A DNA stretch of 11,168 nt, from contig JAEOTE010000050.1 of NCBI GenBank assembly GCA_016839945.1, positions 1 to 11,168 on the forward strand, given 5' to 3'. A program made the translations under genes and the position numbers. This DNA is from Candidatus Heimdallarchaeota archaeon. Its GTDB lineage: Archaea > Asgardarchaeota > Heimdallarchaeia > Heimdallarchaeales > Heimdallarchaeaceae. Shown one piece after another: positions 402 to 11,168 of the stretch; the stretch's first letter is position 1; each line of letters opens with the position of its first letter. The notes beneath the pieces were generated by a model, which worked only from the letters and a program-made list of their open reading frames with translations, did no database searches and was not told the DNA's origin.

Positions 402-523
402 AATAACACCATCTTTTTCTCTTACAAATATGATTCTTTATGATAATCCTTAAACATTGTGCTAAAAAATTTTTTTTGACTAATGCTAAAACTTAATTTT
501 ATAAAATCTAAATTTTCTTGAGA

Positions 524-1297
524 ATGATGAAAAGTGGCTATAGGGGAACTATCTTAATAACTGCTCCTGGAAGCGGAATAGGAAAAAGTATTGTAGAGAA
601 TCTTTTATTGCAAAACTACAAAATTCTAGCAATTGGTGGAGAAAATAGTAAAAAGTATGTAAAAAAGCTATATCCACAGAATAAGAACATAGACTTTCTA
701 GATTGTGATTATTCATCAGAGGAGAGCGTTGTTAAAACCTTCGAAAAATTGCGTAAATTAACACCAAAAATAGATGGAATGATTCATTTAGCAGGAGGTA
801 GTTTAGTTAGTAAGAAAATTGAAGATTTAAGTTTCAAAGATTACAGAAGAGTTATGTCTCTTAATCTAGATTCTTCTTTCTTAATCAGTCGAGAAACTTT
901 CAAATGGATGAAAGAAACCGGAGGAGGAAATATAATCCTATTTGGTTCAACAACTGGATTAAGACCTTCAAATAAAAAACTACCCTATGGTGTTGCTAAA
1001 GCTGGAATACACGCAATGGTTTTATCAATGGCACTTGAAGGATCAGAGTATAAAATAATAACTAATGGGATAGCTCCTGGATACGTTCTTACAGATAGAC
1101 ATGTTGATGAAATCAAAGAAAAAGCTTTGAAGTCAAATGAAAAATTTGATGATATTTTACTTAAAATAAATGAAAAAAATCCTCTTAAACAATCACTTGA
1201 ACCTCAAGAAATCTTTCCACTAATTGAACTTCTTCTTGAAACAAAACATATTCAGGGACAAATAATACGAATAGATTCAGGACAGATTCTTGGATAA
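524..1297 (+). CDS. Short-chain dehydrogenase/reductase (FabG-like SDR)
   Basis: Rossmann motif ITAPGSGIG (variant of TGxxxGIG), catalytic Ser region FGST, YGVAK (YxxxK), NGIAPG, and C-terminal GQIIRIDSG. The track starts at TTG 518. ATG 524 or 527 is more likely given the TATA-like TTTATAAA at 498-505. Substrate unknown. Confidence 0.9.
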   Translation: MMKSGYRGTILITAPGSGIGKSIVENLLLQNYKILAIGGENSKKYVKKLYPQNKNIDFLDCDYSSEESVVKTFEKLRKLTPKIDGMIHLAGGSLVSKKIEDLSFKDYRRVMSLNLDSSFLISRETFKWMKETGGGNIILFGSTTGLRPSNKKLPYGVAKAGIHAMVLSMALEGSEYKIITNGIAPGYVLTDRHVDEIKEKALKSNEKFDDILLKINEKNPLKQSLEPQEIFPLIELLLETKHIQGQIIRIDSGQILG

Positions 1298-1300
1298 ATT

Positions 1301-2212
1301 TTATTTGGGATTTCTTCCACATACTGGACATGACAATCCATATTTGAAGAAAGTTTCATGGTCTTTTTTGCATTCTAATTCCTCTTCATCGAATATTTGT
1401 CTACCAGTAAGTTCTTCTATTCGTTCTTTGAATTCATCTCGATTCAACCATTCATTATCTATCATTTCTCTTGTATAGGGGGCAAAAACAAGATAAGAGA
1501 AAAGAATAGGTAACTCTCCTTCCTTTGCATCTTCATCTTGGTAATTATCTTTACTTTCTTCTAGAAGTTCAGTAATAACGCGAAGTATTTTTAACATATC
1601 TCTTGTGTTAAACCTGTAAATAACACCAGGTAGAATATTGAAATGAGATAATTTCAAAGGATTCAGCCAGTTAGTGTACCAATTTTTTATTTCTTCAGTT
1701 TCTTCGGTAACTAGAACTCGATCCTTATTCATCATAGCTGCATAATGAGATAAAATACCCCTAATTTTTAGTAAATTAAAGAAAGTAAATTCTTTGTGTG
1801 GAGAAGCAAAACCAACATCTTGAAGACCATCATATATTCTTCGATATTCAGTGTAATATACTTCAGGAACACGAAAAACTTTTTGAGTTATTTTTCTACC
1901 TTTCTCATTATATCCAATTAAATTCTCAGTTTCGAGTACATCAACTTCTTTTGATTGTAATATCTTCAAATTGTGATAAACTGAACTTAGATGCATATTA
2001 AGAACTGTAGCAATATCTGCTGCAGTAATTCCTATTATTTCATTACCATCAATACTCACATAGGTTCTTTGAGCAAACATTGCATCAAGGATTATAGCCC
2101 AACAATCAATAGCTGTTGTATATCTCCTGTCTTGAGCTAGTTTGAAGATTCTATCCATATACCAGTTGGATTCTTCTAGCTCTTCGACATCTGCTTCTAT
2201 TTTAGAGGTCAT
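1301..2212 (-). CDS. Putative winged-HTH (ArsR-like) transcriptional regulator with C-terminal Zn-binding motif
   Basis: ~300-aa ORF with HTH-like ITAADIATVLNMHLSSVYHNLKIL followed by a wing-like GRKITQKVFRV, and C-terminal C-x3-H-x9-C-x2-C (CKKDH...CPVCG). ATG 2212 preferred over TTG 2221 because the minus-strand TATA box begins 28 nt upstream. Convergent with the SDR, 3-nt gap. Confidence 0.65.
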   Translation of the reverse strand: MTSKIEADVEELEESNWYMDRIFKLAQDRRYTTAIDCWAIILDAMFAQRTYVSIDGNEIIGITAADIATVLNMHLSSVYHNLKILQSKEVDVLETENLIGYNEKGRKITQKVFRVPEVYYTEYRRIYDGLQDVGFASPHKEFTFFNLLKIRGILSHYAAMMNKDRVLVTEETEEIKNWYTNWLNPLKLSHFNILPGVIYRFNTRDMLKILRVITELLEESKDNYQDEDAKEGELPILFSYLVFAPYTREMIDNEWLNRDEFKERIEELTGRQIFDEEELECKKDHETFFKYGLSCPVCGRNPK

Positions 2213-2230
2213 TGGTTGCAATCCTTGAGT

Positions 2231-2590: not shown

Positions 2591-2605
2591 AATAGGGGGT
2601 CTATA
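2591..2605. promoter_or_regulatory. Candidate ThiR operator upstream of thiR
   Basis: AATAGGGGGTCTATA, 13/15 identical to the reverse complement of the palindrome at 3543-3557. Lies 22 nt upstream of the thiR ATG and just downstream of TATA-like CTTAAAAA (2577-2584). Confidence 0.6.
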
Positions 2606-2627
2606 TAGATAACATATCAGTGATTAA

Positions 2628-3539
2628 ATGAGATTCCCTTGTGAGTTTATAGCATCGACTTTTTTACCTGGTTTGAGAATCAGGATTGCACATCAATTAA
2701 AGGAAAGAGGAAAGTCGCAAAACGCGATTTCAATACTTTTAGGAGTGAAACAACCAGTAATTGCGTCTTATCTTCAGAAAACGATTTCAGATACAGGTGA
2801 CAAAAAATTTAATCATCATCTTGATGCTCTATCAGAAACCATATCAAATATGCTTTTGTCTCAAGAGAAATTAGAGGACACAATGAGAACTATTTGTACT
2901 AAATGTAAATCTTTACGTGTAAGGGGACCTATATGCTCCTTTCATAAATCAATACTACCAGAAATTGCTGACTATGATGATTGTGATATCTGTTCCGGTT
3001 TTGATAGTCTTCCTTCCTTGGAGAAGAGATCACAAGTCCTCTTATCTTTAAAGGAAATATTCGCTGAATTGGAAAAAATTGAAGGGTTCTATGATTGGAT
3101 TCCAGAGATAGGATCACAATTAGCTTCTTGTGAAGATGATGCAAAGGAACTAGATGACGTAGCTAGTTTTCCTGGTAGAATAATCAAAGTAAAGGGAAAT
3201 ATAATAACAGTGAGTCCTCCTGAATTTGGTTCTTCAAAAACAATGTCTTCACTCTTACTTTGGATAAGAAAATCCCAACCTGAAACAAAATGGATTATAG
3301 GAATCAAGAACAAACCAAAGCTAGAGAAGATTCTGAAAAATATAAACATTAGATTCCAAGAAATAAATGAACTTGATAAGAAATGGGACGAGTGTTTAGC
3401 AGAAATAAGAAAAACTGAAAATATTACTGAGATAAAAGGAATACTCGATAAAGGAAGCTTAGGATATGAATCTATTGCCTATCTGTTTGCTAATAATGAA
3501 TTGGACCTACTTAACTTAATAAAACAAATTTCAAAGTAG
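2628..3539 (+). CDS. thiR: ThiR-type transcriptional regulator (N-terminal HTH + Cys/His linker + ThiN thiamine-phosphate-synthase-like domain)
   Basis: N-terminus MRFPCE..FLPGLR..IA..L...G.SQ..I..LLGV.QP.I..YL (archaeal HTH), Cys/His cluster CTKC..C..H..CDIC, and ThiN-like motifs IPEIGS, DVASFPGRI, PPEFGSS, DKGSLGYE. Located directly upstream of a thiamine ABC transporter. Confidence 0.85.
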   Translation: MRFPCEFIASTFLPGLRIRIAHQLKERGKSQNAISILLGVKQPVIASYLQKTISDTGDKKFNHHLDALSETISNMLLSQEKLEDTMRTICTKCKSLRVRGPICSFHKSILPEIADYDDCDICSGFDSLPSLEKRSQVLLSLKEIFAELEKIEGFYDWIPEIGSQLASCEDDAKELDDVASFPGRIIKVKGNIITVSPPEFGSSKTMSSLLLWIRKSQPETKWIIGIKNKPKLEKILKNINIRFQEINELDKKWDECLAEIRKTENITEIKGILDKGSLGYESIAYLFANNELDLLNLIKQISK

Positions 3540-3542
3540 AAT

Positions 3543-3557
3543 TATAGGCCCCCTATA
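3543..3557. promoter_or_regulatory. Candidate ThiR operator upstream of thiB
   Basis: Perfect inverted repeat TATAGG-CCC-CCTATA in the 67-bp thiR-thiB spacer. GC-rich core stands out in AT-rich DNA. TATA-like TTTAAAT follows at 3572-3578. Confidence 0.65.
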
Positions 3558-3606
3558 TAGTAATGCTAAGATTTAAATTCATTTTTGCTATAAAATTAAT
3601 GATAAT

Positions 3607-4824
3607 ATGAAAAAATTGTGGATTATGAGTGTAGTATTTGGTCTACTGCTTTTTTCTTGTTTCTATGAAATTAATGTGTTCACAATTAACGCGGATAATT
3701 ATGAACTAGTTATTTATACATATGAGTCTCTATTAGCAGATCCAGGTTATGACTTTGTGGAGGGATTTGCTAATCATAGTGGAATTGCTAAAGAAGACAT
3801 TCATCTTGTTCTTCTCGAAGATGCAAATTCTATTGTTACACAAGCAGCTTTAGAAAAAAATAATCCAGTTGCAGATGTTTTGATAGGATTAGATAATGTA
3901 CTAATTCACAAAGCAAAAGAAGAAGGGATTCTCGAACCTTACAATTCACCTGAATTGGTTAATGTCTCCAGCGACCTTATATCTAATTTAGATCCAATGA
4001 AACACATTCTTCCCTATGATTATGGAATAATTGCTTTATGGTATGATAACAGTAGAATAAACTCAACATCAAATCCTGAATTAGATACTCTAAAATTACA
4101 AGATATAATTGATGAGAATCTTGATGAGATTCTAATAGTTGAGGATCCAACACTTAGTTCTCCAGGACTAGGTTTTCTACTTTGGACCATAGCAGTATAT
4201 GGTGATCCATCAGTAAATTTTGATGGTCTACTAAAAGATGATTGGAGAAATTGGTGGAAATCAGCATCAAAAAATCTTCGAATTGCACCAAGCTGGGGAG
4301 CTGCTTTTGACATTTATTACACTGAAGAAGAAAACCGTCCAATGATGGTTTCTTATGGAACAAGTCCAGCGTATGATGTTTGTCACCCACTTTGGGGAGT
4401 AGGATCAGGTAGTGATCCACCCTCTACTGCAATTGTCTCTCATGAAAATGGTACTGAAAATGCTTGGTTACAAATAGAAGGACTTGGACTAGTTAAGAAT
4501 GCTCCTAATCAAGCAAATGCACAATCGTTTATAGATTGGTTCCTTAGTGCTGAACTTCAAGATAACATACCAACAAATAACTGGATGTATCCAGCGAATG
4601 TACATGCAAACATCTCAAGTTGTTTTATGGATTCTGCGATTAATCCTGCTGATGTAAATATCTTGAATGATCTCATTACACCTACTATGTTGGAAGAAAA
4701 TCTGGATATGTGGAAGAATGATTGGGAAACTGAAATTGCTTCTTTCAGCTCAATATTTCTAATAATACTAACATTGAGTTTCTCAGCAATAACATACATA
4801 TTCCTGCGAAAAAAAAGAGAATAG
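3607..4824 (+). CDS. thiB: Thiamine ABC transporter substrate-binding protein (ThiB/TbpA)
   Basis: ThiB-type motifs YTYES, ADVLIGLDN, PYDYG, SSPGLGFLLWT, MVSYGTSPAY, QIEG, NWMYP. N-terminal signal peptide; C-terminal hydrophobic helix plus RKKRE. Confidence 0.9.
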   Translation: MKKLWIMSVVFGLLLFSCFYEINVFTINADNYELVIYTYESLLADPGYDFVEGFANHSGIAKEDIHLVLLEDANSIVTQAALEKNNPVADVLIGLDNVLIHKAKEEGILEPYNSPELVNVSSDLISNLDPMKHILPYDYGIIALWYDNSRINSTSNPELDTLKLQDIIDENLDEILIVEDPTLSSPGLGFLLWTIAVYGDPSVNFDGLLKDDWRNWWKSASKNLRIAPSWGAAFDIYYTEEENRPMMVSYGTSPAYDVCHPLWGVGSGSDPPSTAIVSHENGTENAWLQIEGLGLVKNAPNQANAQSFIDWFLSAELQDNIPTNNWMYPANVHANISSCFMDSAINPADVNILNDLITPTMLEENLDMWKNDWETEIASFSSIFLIILTLSFSAITYIFLRKKRE

Positions 4825-4848
4825 AATTACCAAAGGCAGATAGAGGAA

Positions 4849-6597
4849 ATGATGTCAAGAACTGTTAGGAAGGAAACAAATATAGAAGAAATTGCTAATA
4901 AATTCATAATCATTTTAGCTATTATTGCTTTAGGTTCTTTCCTATTATCTCTTTTTTATGTTCCATTGATACAAATTCTGCGATTTGCTTTCTCATCAGA
5001 ATCAAAATTTACATTTGCGATATTTTCATCTACAATAACAGATACTCTTAATCTAAAATTCATCGGATTCACTTTCGCTCAAGCTCTGCTATCAACTGTA
5101 ATTTGTTTATTCATTGGTTTACCCGCAGGATTTTTCTTCGCTAAATATGAATTTAAAGGTAAAAAGCTTGTTCTGAATCTTTTAACAATTCCTTTTGTAC
5201 TCCCTCCTATCGTTGTCTTACTTGGTTTTATTGTCTCTTATGGAGAAGGGGGATGGATAAATTCTATTTGGAAAGGAATGACAGGAACAGATAACGTTCT
5301 CATAAGTATTTTTGGAACATTCGAAGGAATAGTTTTAGCTCATATTTTTTACAATTTATCTGTAATCATAAGAATGACAATACCTGCATGGCAAAGTCTT
5401 GATTTAGAGCAAGTGGAAGTTTCAAGGACACTAGGAGCTAGTGAATGGAAGATTTTTTGGAAAATTATTTTTCCTCAAATTGTTAATTATCTAATTTCTT
5501 CTGCTCTATTAGTTTTCATTTACACATTTAACAGCTTTGCAATAGTGCTTTATCTGGGTGAAGTAAGGTTTCAGACTCTAGAGGTGAGAATATTCAAAAT
5601 GATGAAAGCATCTCTTAATTTTTCAGGAGGAGCTTCACTTGCTTTTCTTCAACTAATTTTGAATACTATAATCATTATATTGTACTTACTTTTTGAGAGA
5701 AAAACGAGACAGATGGCTATTGGAAAAGAGAGAGGTCTTCAGAAAGAAAAAATATCATTCTCTAGATATAATTGGAAGAAGAATCTCTCAATAATAGGGT
5801 TAATCTTATTTATGTTGATTATAGGCGTTTTCACATTTGCTCCAATTCTTGCTGTAATAATAGTTTCATTCACTCCGTTTTCATCAGAAGTATCTCCCTT
5901 CTTTGGGTATATGCAGCTGTTTTCATTCGAATATAGTCCTCTTCTAAATAATTCTCCTCTAAGGTTGTTACTGAATACTTTACTTTTTGCTTTTGCGGCA
6001 ACACTAATAACTTTGACTCTTTCTTTGATGATTGTTTTTGTTCTCAAGAATAGATATCAGAGTTTAAAGAAATATCAAAGATCAATATCTGAAAGTTTTA
6101 TTTCTTATATGATCATTCTACCAATGGCAACTTCATCAATAACTCTTGCTTTGGGATTATTCCTACTCTTCAACAATACTTCTTTGTATCTTAATGCTGT
6201 GTGGTTTTTTATAATTATGGCACATGTTTTAATTAGTGTACCATTTGCAACCAGATCAATAATGGCAGCTTATAACAGAATAGATGTTGAATTATTAAAC
6301 GTAGCTTCTACGTTAGGAGCTTCAAGACTACGGGTGTTCAGAAAAATAGAGTTACCTCTTATCTTGAGAGGAATAATTGTTGGTGGAATCTTCTCATTTG
6401 CTATTAGTTTAGGGGAATTTGGTGCAACAAACTTTTTAGTAAGAGGAGCATATGGAACTTTATCAATTGGTATATCTAAATTACTCCTGACTCAAACTTT
6501 GCAATTGCCAGCTACTATGGCAAGTATCTTGATAATTGTAACCATAATATGTTTCTTAGCAATACAAAAACTTGGAGATGTCGAATTAAAGGTGTAA
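4849..6597 (+). CDS. thiP: Thiamine ABC transporter permease (ThiP, duplicated TM domain)
   Basis: 582-aa hydrophobic protein with two EAA-like loops (EVSRTLGAS, NVASTLGAS), FTFAQALLST, PFVLP, AHIFYN, SLGEFGAT. GAGG at 4843-4846 may favour the second ATG (4852). Confidence 0.9.
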   Translation: MMSRTVRKETNIEEIANKFIIILAIIALGSFLLSLFYVPLIQILRFAFSSESKFTFAIFSSTITDTLNLKFIGFTFAQALLSTVICLFIGLPAGFFFAKYEFKGKKLVLNLLTIPFVLPPIVVLLGFIVSYGEGGWINSIWKGMTGTDNVLISIFGTFEGIVLAHIFYNLSVIIRMTIPAWQSLDLEQVEVSRTLGASEWKIFWKIIFPQIVNYLISSALLVFIYTFNSFAIVLYLGEVRFQTLEVRIFKMMKASLNFSGGASLAFLQLILNTIIIILYLLFERKTRQMAIGKERGLQKEKISFSRYNWKKNLSIIGLILFMLIIGVFTFAPILAVIIVSFTPFSSEVSPFFGYMQLFSFEYSPLLNNSPLRLLLNTLLFAFAATLITLTLSLMIVFVLKNRYQSLKKYQRSISESFISYMIILPMATSSITLALGLFLLFNNTSLYLNAVWFFIIMAHVLISVPFATRSIMAAYNRIDVELLNVASTLGASRLRVFRKIELPLILRGIIVGGIFSFAISLGEFGATNFLVRGAYGTLSIGISKLLLTQTLQLPATMASILIIVTIICFLAIQKLGDVELKV

Positions 6598-6599
6598 AT

Positions 6600-7688
6600 A
6601 TGACAAAATTAGAACTAAAAGAAATATCCATGAAATATGAAAGAAAATACATTCTAGAAGATCTAATTCTAGAGGTGAACCATGGAGAGCTTTTGGTTCT
6701 ATTAGGTGAAAGTGGTTGCGGGAAGACTTCTCTCTTAAAGATAATTGCAGGGATTATCAAACCTGAAAAAGGAGATATTCTAATGGATGGTGAGAACATC
6801 ACACATCTTGCTCCACAGAAAAGAAAAATTGGATACGTTCCTCAAGCACAAGTTTTATTTCCTCACATGAAAATCAGGGAAAATATTTCTTTTGGTCTTG
6901 AAGCTCATAGATTTGACAAACAAGAAATAGAAGATAAAATCAAATGGGTAGCAGAACTGACTCAAATAGAAGATTTACTAGATAGATATCCAAGTGAGAT
7001 TAGTGGAGGACAAAAACAACGTGTTGCACTAGGTAGAGCTATGGCAATAGAACCACGTCTTCTGCTTTTGGATGAACCTCTATCATCAATTGATGCTTCT
7101 GGAAGAGAATCGCTAGCACTTACTATAAGAAGAATTCAAAAAGAGACAGAAACAACAACCCTTTATGTCACACACAATCAGGAAGAAGCTCGATTAATCT
7201 GCGACAGAGTAGCTTTAATGTATGATGGTAAAATACAACAAATTGGCAAAGTAATAGAGATTGATAAAAATCCTTTGAATCTTATAATTGCAAAGATTAT
7301 GGGGTCTGTTAACATTTGGTCAATAGAATTTATAGAGAAAAAAGATAAACATTCAATTATAACAACTCCAATAGGAAGCTTTCAACTACCTTATGAAATC
7401 ATAAAACATAAGCCAACAGGAATAAAAATCCCAGCAGAGGTTATTGAACTTTCATTTGATATAGGAAGCACAGACCACCGTTCGGATACATCAAATTTTA
7501 TTTTGAATGGAAAGATAAAATCCATTGTTGAAAAAGATGAAGAAACTCATCGAATTATTATAGATTTATCAGAAACAGTTTCTGAATATATTAAAGTTGA
7601 TTGTAAAAAAGAACTCATTAAAAAGGAACTTAAACCAAACCAAGAAGTTATTTTACATATTGATCCCTTGGAGGTTATTTTAATTTGA
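6600..7688 (+). CDS. thiQ: ABC transporter ATP-binding subunit of the thiamine importer (ThiQ/PotA-like, C-terminal TOBE-like extension)
   Basis: Walker A GESGCGKT, Q-loop VPQ, signature ISGGQKQR, Walker B LLLLDEP, H-loop VTH. Start moved from 6549 to ATG 6600, 2 nt after the thiP stop, with GGTG at 6591-6594. Confidence 0.9.
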   Translation: MTKLELKEISMKYERKYILEDLILEVNHGELLVLLGESGCGKTSLLKIIAGIIKPEKGDILMDGENITHLAPQKRKIGYVPQAQVLFPHMKIRENISFGLEAHRFDKQEIEDKIKWVAELTQIEDLLDRYPSEISGGQKQRVALGRAMAIEPRLLLLDEPLSSIDASGRESLALTIRRIQKETETTTLYVTHNQEEARLICDRVALMYDGKIQQIGKVIEIDKNPLNLIIAKIMGSVNIWSIEFIEKKDKHSIITTPIGSFQLPYEIIKHKPTGIKIPAEVIELSFDIGSTDHRSDTSNFILNGKIKSIVEKDEETHRIIIDLSETVSEYIKVDCKKELIKKELKPNQEVILHIDPLEVILI

Positions 7689-8500
7689 TATCTGATTCAA
7701 TTAAGAATGAGATAAATTTAGCAATAATTGAGAAGTTTAATCTTAATCAAGAACCTAGTTGGAACTATATTGATAGAGGATATATTAACGAGAAATTTGA
7801 GATTGCAGGAGAAAATAAAGAACCTCTTGCAATATGTAAGATATTTACAGAGGAAGAAAAAATATATCGAGCTGAACAAAGATATAAACGAGAGGAATTT
7901 GCTTTAGAAATATATGGAGGTAAAATAGCTCCTGATATTATCTGGAAAAACGATTCTGAGATTATTGTATATAGTTATATTGTTGGACAAGAGCTTCTTC
8001 ACCTTGAGATTAATAATGAAACAGAAACGAAAATAAAGAAAGTAATTGATCATATTCATAAAATTGCAAGAAACGATATTAAAGTAAGAAAAGAAGAAGT
8101 AACAAACTTCTATCAAGAAATAATTAGTGAATACAAAAAATCTGAAATTGGATACCCATCAAAACTGATTGAAGAATTAGAAGATCTTACTATCAAACAA
8201 AAAGAAGTATTAGACCAATTCCAAGAGAAACTAACATATGTTCATGGAGATTTAATTCCTCCAAATTTCATATTCGATGGAAAACAATTTATTCTAATTG
8301 ATTGGGAGTTTTTCAGACCTGAGTTAACTTTTTTTGATTATAAATACTTTAACTACTACGCTAAAGCTCACAAAATGCCAATAGAGCTGAAAATAGATCA
8401 GACGGTTCAAAATTTATATTTTAGATTGATTGATGTTTTGGAGAAACTCTGGAGATATGGATATTTACAAAGGAAAAACGAAATCCACTATGAAATTTAA
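7685..8500 (+). CDS. APH/choline-kinase-fold phosphotransferase; candidate thiamine kinase (ThiK-like)
   Basis: GYIN loop, ICKIF (ATP-binding Lys), REEFAL, Brenner motif HGDLIPPN, and LIDWEF. TTG start overlaps the thiQ stop (TTGA) with GGAGGT at 7670-7675. The fold is confident; the substrate is inferred from context only. Confidence 0.8.
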   Translation: MISDSIKNEINLAIIEKFNLNQEPSWNYIDRGYINEKFEIAGENKEPLAICKIFTEEEKIYRAEQRYKREEFALEIYGGKIAPDIIWKNDSEIIVYSYIVGQELLHLEINNETETKIKKVIDHIHKIARNDIKVRKEEVTNFYQEIISEYKKSEIGYPSKLIEELEDLTIKQKEVLDQFQEKLTYVHGDLIPPNFIFDGKQFILIDWEFFRPELTFFDYKYFNYYAKAHKMPIELKIDQTVQNLYFRLIDVLEKLWRYGYLQRKNEIHYEI

Positions 8501-8716: not shown

Positions 8717-8872
8717 TTGGGATATAGACGATATGATGACAGTCCAAGAGAAATGCATGACATAAAATGCTCAGAATGCGGACAAGATGCACAAGTGCCT
8801 TTCAAGCCTGATGGTGAAAGACCAGTGTACTGCAGAGATTGTTATCAAAAACAAAGAAGATCAAGATATTAG
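8717..8872 (+). CDS. Small CxxC-x17-CxxC zinc-ribbon domain protein (51 aa)
   Basis: Not in the ORF track. MGYRRYDDSPREMHDIKCSECGQDAQVPFKPDGERPVYCRDCYQKQRRSRY*, with CSEC-x17-CRDC and the family's VPFKP..RPVYC signature. SD AGGTGA at 8706-8711 before TTG. Confidence 0.9.
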   Translation: MGYRRYDDSPREMHDIKCSECGQDAQVPFKPDGERPVYCRDCYQKQRRSRY

Positions 8873-10479: not shown

Positions 10480-11168
10480 TTATGTTTTTTCTATTTTTGT
10501 TTCCTTATTAGGCGTCGTTTGTTTCTCCATTTCTTTCGCATTTATATACGACAATATTGATACACTCCCTAGTAGTATTACTATCCCAATTATCTGTAAG
10601 ATAGCTAAAGTTCTGTTATCAGAAACACCAAATCCTAAGAAAAAGTAATTTACTACAATTGCTAATAGAGGAAAGGCTAATTCAGCTATACCTGCAATAG
10701 CTGCTTTTGATCTTTTCAATCCAAAATAATAAAGTGCTAGTGGAAGTACTCCTCCAGTAAAGATAGCAGCATATAGAATACAAACACCTCCATACCACTG
10801 CCAATCTAAAGGTACAAAACCTCCAGCGTCTGAATTAAAGTATCCAAAAACGTTCATTTTTGTCCCTAGCAAATTGAAATATTCTGCTTTGAAAGTTAAC
10901 AATGGAATATTTAAGAAAATAAGAAAGAGAAAACCTCCTATATATCTAAACAATGTTAAATTCCAATAGTCAACTTTTTCCGTTAGAATTCTTCCAAAGA
11001 CTGTTGAACCCCCCCAGAATACAGCTGCTAGAAGAGAGCATAAAACAGCAACAATAGCATATGTACCTAGTGTTTTAGAAATTCCCCACTTATCAATTAT
11101 ATCGGGAATCACCATTAAAATAATACCAGATAAAGCAAAGAAGAGAGTGATATAGAACCTATATGATA
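10480..11168 (-). CDS. EamA/DMT family transporter, 5' end outside the window
   Basis: Frame stays open to the window edge (SYRFYITLFFALSGIILMVIP...). EamA-type motifs AAVFWGGSTVFGR, TLFRY, LYYFGLKRSKA..A.IAELAFP, QIIG..ILLG. Confidence 0.85.
   Translation of the reverse strand, partial: SYRFYITLFFALSGIILMVIPDIIDKWGISKTLGTYAIVAVLCSLLAAVFWGGSTVFGRILTEKVDYWNLTLFRYIGGFLFLIFLNIPLLTFKAEYFNLLGTKMNVFGYFNSDAGGFVPLDWQWYGGVCILYAAIFTGGVLPLALYYFGLKRSKAAIAGIAELAFPLLAIVVNYFFLGFGVSDNRTLAILQIIGIVILLGSVSILSYINAKEMEKQTTPNKETKIEKT

Follow-up and report, generated by a model that had tools for sequence, protein, structure and literature searches.

Positions 2628 to 8500 of the 11,168-nucleotide Heimdallarchaeota stretch analysed here (the window) hold five genes on one strand, thiR, thiB, thiP, thiQ and a kinase gene, which together probably serve an Asgard archaeon in the salvage of thiamine (vitamin B1). 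In this locus the kinase would convert thiamine to thiamine monophosphate (TMP), from which ThiL would make thiamine pyrophosphate (TPP), under repression by ThiR. The first phosphorylation of imported thiamine is most likely the work of this kinase, as judged from its conserved motifs and from its gene neighbours in related archaea, and the source organism appears to be a B1 auxotroph.

The source genome is 3.0 Mb in size, in 186 contigs, 88% complete and about 31% G+C. A preliminary description had listed five co-oriented genes with gaps of 67, 24, 2 and −4 nucleotides and no biosynthetic thi genes or riboswitch in the window, and this layout was confirmed. The same-strand open reading frames (ORFs) lie at 2628–3539, 3607–4824, 4849–6597, 6600–7688 and 7685–8500, with 67 nucleotides between thiR and thiB, 24 between thiB and thiP, 2 between thiP and thiQ, and a 4-nucleotide overlap of thiQ with the kinase gene. 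The 2-nucleotide gap depends on choosing ATG 6600, which follows AGGTG, as the thiQ start; the mechanical ORF list begins thiQ at 6549. The kinase starts at TTG 7685, within the thiQ stop (TTGA, stop codon TGA). Domain models found no biosynthetic thi genes in the window, and riboswitch searches found no TPP riboswitch there or in the whole source genome. The features of the locus are as follows.

2591 to 2609, forward strand: ThiR operator-like site 1, AATAG-N5-CTATA followed by TAG, 19 to 37 nucleotides 5' of the thiR ATG
2628 to 3539, forward strand: thiR, helix-turn-helix (HTH) plus ThiN (PF10120, 110 bits; ThiN at residues 141–299)
3543 to 3561, forward strand: ThiR operator-like site 2, TATAG-GCCCC-CTATA followed by TAG, 5' of thiB
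3565 to 3578, forward strand: GCTAAGATTTAAA element, nearly invariant in the alignment, a probable B recognition element/TATA box of the thiB promoter
3607 to 4824, forward strand: thiB, thiamine-type substrate-binding protein (TIGR01254, 180.6 bits)
4849 to 6597, forward strand: thiP, fused two-domain ATP-binding cassette (ABC) permease (two BPD_transp_1 stretches)
6600 to 7688, forward strand: thiQ, ABC ATPase with a C-terminal extension (PF00005, 126 bits)
7670 to 7675, forward strand: Shine-Dalgarno-like GGAGGT for the kinase gene, inside thiQ and 9 nucleotides 5' of the kinase start
7685 to 8500, forward strand: APH/choline-kinase-fold kinase, a candidate thiamine kinase (PF01633, PF01636, conserved motifs, synteny)

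The kinase family and its gene neighbours

The kinase matches PF01633 with 37.7 bits (gathering threshold 29) and PF01636 with 32.2 bits (gathering threshold 23.2), and it adopts the APH/choline-kinase fold, keeps the HxDxxxxN loop intact, carries the D(W)E motif that binds metal and has a C-terminal lobe rich in aromatics. Residues K52, E70, H187-G-D189-x4-N194 and D206-W-E208 are invariant in the 17 family members. Its AlphaFold model (pLDDT 93.5) gave as best Foldseek matches the LicA choline kinase (TM-score about 0.65) together with macrolide and aminoglycoside phosphotransferases; a search of the kinase profile against the sequences of solved structures yielded nothing useful. The ThiK model (TIGR02721/NF007620), with a best E-value within the family of 6e-11, is one of two NCBIfam models that match 16 of the 17 members. 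When the family profile was searched against 1.84 billion protein representatives, we recovered 13 clusters at E ≤ 1e-30, after which full-length scores drop from 173 to 62 bits. The next-nearest proteins in this global library are mostly sub-threshold ThiK/GntI-like kinases, with ThiK models among their top matches. By these scores, the kinase belongs to a small Asgard family with a sharp boundary, which lies near ThiK within the superfamily.

A scan of 185,579 species genomes returned 22 archaeal loci encoding the kinase. The arrangement thiR-thiB-thiP-thiQ-kinase is complete and in order in about 13 of these, and loci truncated by contig ends show the same gene order as far as their sequence reaches. 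The kinase gene adjoins thiQ, with the junction at the same coordinate, in 18 loci (with a 4-nucleotide overlap in G005 and G006), and adjoins it in two further genera at 36–37% kinase identity with thiR unlinked or out of view, making 20 loci in total and a junction that persists across four genera. The synteny that the preliminary description had proposed to check therefore holds in about 20 related loci. Within the class Heimdallarchaeia, the window-type kinase is confined to family f1, where 25 of 30 genomes encode it and most of the misses come from a locus that failed to assemble or is broken at a contig end.

In the sister family f5, we observed a 318-residue APH-fold kinase encoded directly upstream of thiB, opposite thiR, which is related to the window family at an hhalign probability of 96.5% and 22% identity. 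Two examined copies are 67% identical to each other. This subfamily is encoded by 19 of the 22 f5 genomes and by none outside f5 in the class; in at least 14 genomes its coordinates put it within about 1–1.5 kb of thiR. That two divergent kinase subfamilies, arranged in two gene orders, keep the same partners is the best reason to think that the imported vitamin is what the kinase acts on. In one closed f5 genome (G057), the insertion of an IS605 OrfB/TnpB-like gene (L048:7196-8416, reverse strand) separates thiR from the kinase-thiBPQ unit.

Thiamine pathway genes in the source genome and its class

The preliminary description had pictured a vitamin B1-scavenging and possibly auxotrophic archaeon, and had named the presence of thiL, the lack of a pyrophosphokinase and an inventory of biosynthetic genes as the points on which this depends. 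ThiL is present in the source genome with 216 bits (cut-off 184), and searches there for thiamine pyrophosphokinase, ThiE, ThiC and ThiD came back empty. No catalytic ThiN was found in the genome. Matches to Thi4 were rejected, since they cover only the N-terminal model positions 3–84 of 235 and lie in much longer ORFs, and the single ThiM match was rejected as the NAD(P)HX dehydratase Nnr (YjeF). On this inventory thiC, thiD, thiE, thiM, thi4 and a catalytic ThiN are all absent from the source genome. The organism nevertheless needs the TPP cofactor, because nine TPP-binding (TPP-enzyme) domains are present in the genome.

The relatives extend this picture. None of the 83 genomes of the class has ThiC, and 76 of them have ThiL. 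Among the 31 genomes of the family, two single-contig ones included, none has a ThiE match above cut-off and 30 have no true ThiD match; G004 has a partial ThiD-family match above cut-off. Weak TPK_catalytic matches across the family, which might have been a hidden pyrophosphokinase, were rejected as MptE, with PTPS adjoining, and none of them passes the cut-off. The source genome encodes such an MptE-like 6-hydroxymethylpterin diphosphokinase at G000:C97:26590-27336 (reverse strand), and PTPS adjoins its counterpart in a relative. These inventories of the genome and its relatives agree with the scavenging archaeon first proposed: the lineage looks like a thiamine auxotroph requiring a thiamine-to-TMP step, as far as gene content can tell. 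The loss of TMP synthase is not class-wide, because a genome of family f6 (G069) keeps a ThiD-ThiN fusion. The fusion (L052:17-1114, forward strand) is bona fide, with scores of 188 and 186 bits, and its genome also encodes a ThiR-type protein. In the literature searched, neither the thiamine metabolism of Heimdallarchaeia nor any thiamine kinase from archaea was found described.

Regulator, operators and importer

By profile and fold matching, the domain order of the first gene product, HTH followed by ThiN, is the ThiR architecture. Its ThiN domain aligns with model positions 2–164 of 165 of PF10120, and the structural model of the protein matches the solved ThiN domains 2PHP and 2PB9 at a Foldseek E-value of about 1e-9. 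No Pfam model matches the N-terminal 135 residues. A profile of residues 1–135 matched the archaeal HTH regulator 8HNP (E 5e-4) and, weakly, the HTH proteins Tfx, HipB and HigA (E 0.006–0.6), and helices predicted at 6–26, 31–38 and 42–50 are compatible with an HTH.

In 2PHP and 2PB9, both from ThiDN proteins, the motif EFGAS-x-H carries a His that aligns with ThiR Thr205, a residue invariant in 14 ThiR orthologues. A genuine ThiDN from the same class retains the His, as do some HTH-ThiN proteins of the class. The replacement of His by Thr205 argues that the ThiN domain of ThiR, which is the sole ThiN domain in the source genome, is inactive. In the 2017 work of Hwang et al., the criteria for a non-catalytic ThiN were reportedly a shorter helix and a missing Met near the active-site His, and the Haloferax ThiR is said to be catalytically inactive. 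Two J Bacteriol studies of that year, by Rodionov et al. and by Hwang et al., are likewise said to have found that DNA binding by ThiR requires TMP and that its ThiN domain is non-catalytic. In Pyrococcus furiosus, PF0601 (ThiR) is a predicted thiamin-transport regulator (PMC10746257).

Between the HTH and ThiN domains lies a Cys/His cluster, C90-x2-C93...C103-x2-H106...C119-x2-C122 (window positions 2895–2996), which is kept in families f1, f3, f4, f5 and f7 of the class and in one Promethearchaeota protein. The Cys-rich linker is modelled with low confidence (pLDDT <50), and the cluster may serve in zinc binding or redox sensing.

The two operator-like sites are near-identical palindromes. 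Site 1 is kept at −39/−41 of the thiR start in 13 orthologous loci and is followed by a GGTGA ribosome-binding site; site 2 is kept at −66/−68 of the thiB start in 13 loci and is directly followed by GCTAAGATTTAAA. We scanned the 3.0-Mb genome with a matrix built from 22 orthologous sites, the window's own two excluded, and found site 2 (score 31.3) and site 1 (score 20.4) at ranks 1 and 2. The twin sites noted in the preliminary description are thus real outliers, far beyond chance. The third-best match (C20:14239, score 16.2) was dismissed because it lies inside an ORF, and thiL carries no operator site. Because only the two sites of this locus lead the genome-wide scan, the predicted ThiR regulon is the thiR-thiBPQ-kinase locus alone. 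Each site abuts or overlaps promoter-like sequence, and the arms of the sites are themselves TATA-like. ThiR may therefore either keep TBP/TFB from binding or act upstream of these factors. The separate site and promoter-like element of thiB point to two probable transcription units, thiR on the one hand and thiBPQ-kinase on the other, with one operator for each.

Of the importer components, the substrate-binding protein is the most clearly assigned. ThiB passes the TIGR01254 cut-off of 93.4 and does not reach the narrower equivalog TIGR01276 (112.7 versus 317); among solved structures it comes closest to E. coli TbpA (2QRY), matched over the full length at E 3.5e-30. Its N-terminus carries a signal/lipobox-like segment, and its C-terminus a membrane anchor. 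ThiP aligns end to end with ThiP models and misses the TIGR01253 cut-off (144 versus 395), and ThiQ similarly misses that of TIGR01277 (170 versus 245 bits); the C-terminal extension of ThiQ, about 130 residues, gives it a PotA/WtpC/MalK-like length. By these comparisons ThiP and ThiQ are family relatives rather than equivalogs, and the architecture, a fused double permease with one ATPase, fits a thiamine importer.

The locus is flanked by genes of other kinds. Divergent from thiR, a 306-residue protein (orf306; 1301–2221, reverse strand) has no Pfam or NCBIfam match, is 57–72% identical across the genus-level loci, contains an HTH-like stretch and ends in CPVCG. Upstream lies a short-chain dehydrogenase/reductase (SDR; 518–1297, forward strand) and downstream an EamA-family transporter (10480–11115, reverse strand). 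Both are kept as operon neighbours, at varying distances, in most genus-level loci, and we found no evidence linking either to thiamine. The upstream SDR and orf306 were rejected as members of the module, being conserved at genus level only and absent from the g4 and g5 loci, as judged on loci fetched around the kinase. A 51-codon ORF (8717–8872, forward strand), below the length limit of the ORF list, follows an AAGGTGA ribosome-binding site and encodes a CxxC...CxxC zinc-ribbon-like peptide.

Proposed mechanism, rival explanations and known systems

From these components we infer the thiamine kinase activity, the ThiR ligand, the sign of regulation and the transcript structure, with ligand and sign taken from what the 2017 ThiR studies reportedly found in other lineages. 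Surface-anchored ThiB would capture thiamine, and ThiP and ThiQ would import it. The kinase, translationally coupled to thiQ, would then phosphorylate the thiamine hydroxyethyl group to give TMP, which the unlinked ThiL would convert to TPP. When thiamine phosphate is plentiful, ThiR, with its ThiN domain lacking the active-site His, would bind TATAG-N5-CTATA at the thiR and thiB promoters and, bound at both, would repress its own gene and thiBPQ-kinase. Since the searches reveal no TMP synthase, most of the ThiR ligand inside the cell would come from the kinase, and this would create a negative feedback loop confined to one locus.

Such a single-locus loop, already drawn in the preliminary description, fits the window and is not obligatory, given the unlinked, operator-free kinase of genus g2 described below. 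The same description had the kinase trapping imported thiamine as TMP. The step before ThiL is supported by the inventory, but trapping is not needed behind an ABC importer, and the kinase is better described as an obligatory first activation step before ThiL than as a trapping device. ThiL accepts only TMP, and it is for this reason that the kinase matters.

Several observations weigh against this account. The kinase scores 17.9 bits on the ThiK model TIGR02721, whose cut-off is 299, and compares with E. coli ThiK at an hhalign probability of 51% and 16% identity; by these measures bacterial ThiK is not its orthologue. The kinase matches GntI-like and Bud32-like models about as well as it does ThiK, so that its substrate is not fixed by sequence alone. 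The permease and ATPase score equally or higher on phosphonate, polyamine and tungstate transporter models, and by analogy with E. coli ThiBPQ may import TMP and TPP directly, leaving the kinase dispensable for those forms. Absences in one 88%-complete genome are, on their own, no proof. The thiB site lies just 5' of the putative TATA box, a placement that in archaea can mean activation. In genus g2 the kinase gene stands apart from thiBPQ, without an operator, among VapBC and HepT/MNT toxin-antitoxin genes, and thiR and thiBPQ are divergent neighbours. Finally, in families f3, f4 and f7 neither kinase subfamily was found with these queries; ThiR and ThiL are present in these families, with thiBPQ seen beside thiR in f3 and f4, so another route to TMP must exist in these relatives. 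The detached g2 kinases (L016:211-2039 and L043:5458-6185) are flanked by RHH-PIN, VapB-PIN and MNT-HepT pairs, which suggests rearrangement around mobile modules.

The leading rival has the kinase acting on an unrelated small molecule, such as choline, ethanolamine, an antibiotic or another hydroxylated metabolite, with no role in thiamine metabolism. The kinase scores higher on the Pfam models Choline_kinase and APH than on those of ThiK, its best fold matches are LicA and the antibiotic phosphotransferases, and the gene stands alone in g2. We nevertheless consider this unlikely, as four genera retain the thiQ/kinase junction even where kinase identity falls to 36%, a divergent second subfamily in another family has its own independent link to thiBPQ and thiR with the genes ordered differently, and without the kinase the genome shows no thiamine-to-TMP route for ThiL. 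Less probable still is that the transporter carries another solute, of the 2-aminoethylphosphonate, polyamine, iron or oxyanion type, on which the kinase would act. The highest scores of the permease and ATPase, on PhnU/PhnT2, ModB, WtpC and PotA, and their failure to reach any ThiP or ThiQ cut-off speak for it; but the binding protein, which sets specificity, passes the thiamine subfamily cut-off and has TbpA as its only strong solved relative, the fused permease aligns over its whole length with ThiP models, and a ThiN-domain regulator heads the locus with its site at both promoters.

Two further explanations we regard as very improbable. In one, the HTH-ThiN protein would still be a TMP synthase, and the kinase would supply phosphorylated hydroxyethylthiazole or hydroxymethylpyrimidine taken up by the transporter. 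Its ThiN domain is indeed complete (110 bits over nearly the entire model), and certain HTH-ThiN proteins of the class keep the His, yet in 14 of 14 orthologues of this ThiR the EFGAS-x-H position is Thr. There is moreover no ThiD to make hydroxymethylpyrimidine pyrophosphate and no ThiM, and a single APH-fold kinase would be unable to supply both substrates; the reported inactivity of Haloferax ThiR points the same way. In the other, the kinase-fold protein would be regulatory, a protein kinase or ATPase modulating the importer or ThiR, in keeping with weak matches to RIO1 and Bud32 models and with the ATPase C-terminal extension as a possible target. Its whole-length fold matches are, however, small-molecule kinases, as are its nearest global-library relatives of the ThiK/GntI-like type, and the missing metabolic step would stay unfilled.

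The thiamine salvage locus remains the preferred explanation. With somewhat less confidence, we lean towards a wider form of it, in which the two divergent, lineage-specific APH-fold families are the missing thiamine kinases of Heimdall-type archaea, the ThiC-less class consists throughout of pyrimidine-type B1 auxotrophs, each kinase belongs to the regulon of the ThiR repressor that it supplies with TMP as ligand, which closes a loop of uptake, activation and sensing, and the Cys/His cluster may add a metal or redox input. The kinase would be a concrete candidate for a missing archaeal B1 salvage step, from thiamine to TMP, where ThiL is present and a pyrophosphokinase absent, and the locus would extend the ThiR regulatory system to Asgard archaea, with an operator defined. 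It also leads to the prediction that Heimdall-type archaea, the closest prokaryotes to eukaryotes, depend on external thiamine, which bears on cultivation media and on ideas of syntrophic dependence on partners. Since regulator, importer and reaction are all of known component types, the advance is incremental rather than conceptual.

Among known systems, the archaeal ThiR regulators share with the window protein the two-domain architecture, a palindromic operator 5' of thiamine genes including their own, control of a transporter, and the lack of a TPP riboswitch in the genome. The differences are the operator consensus, here TATAG-N5-CTATA, the Cys/His cluster conserved here, a regulon that here apparently comprises uptake and kinase genes only, and the Asgard host lineage. 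Asgard archaea were reportedly not among the lineages analysed in the 2017 ThiR studies.

The enterobacterial thiamine kinase ThiK/YcfN (EC 2.7.1.89) resembles the window kinase in superfamily fold, catalytic motifs, predicted reaction and downstream ThiL, and also in genomic logic, with ThiL present and no pyrophosphokinase. The two are not orthologous, and whereas E. coli thiK is unlinked to thiBPQ, the window kinase is translationally coupled to thiQ. The E. coli importer ThiBPQ (TbpA-ThiP-ThiQ), which carries thiamine, TMP and TPP, is matched by a full-length TbpA homologue, a double permease fused into one protein, and one gene for the ATPase. The window importer differs in its membrane-anchored ThiB, as is usual in archaea, in the ATPase extension of about 130 residues, in missing the ThiB, ThiP and ThiQ equivalog cut-offs, and in regulation of the locus by a protein rather than a riboswitch.

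Operons joining a vitamin transporter to a kinase also have a precedent, for example pnuT with a thiamine kinase gene, and 'metabolic trapping' has been proposed for Pnu transporters (PMC5749112). As in those operons, transporter genes in the window stand next to the gene for the enzyme of the first phosphorylation and would be controlled together with it. Pnu proteins are facilitators that need trapping, in contrast to the ATP-driven importer of the window, whose partner would be a monophosphate-forming, APH-fold kinase making TMP.

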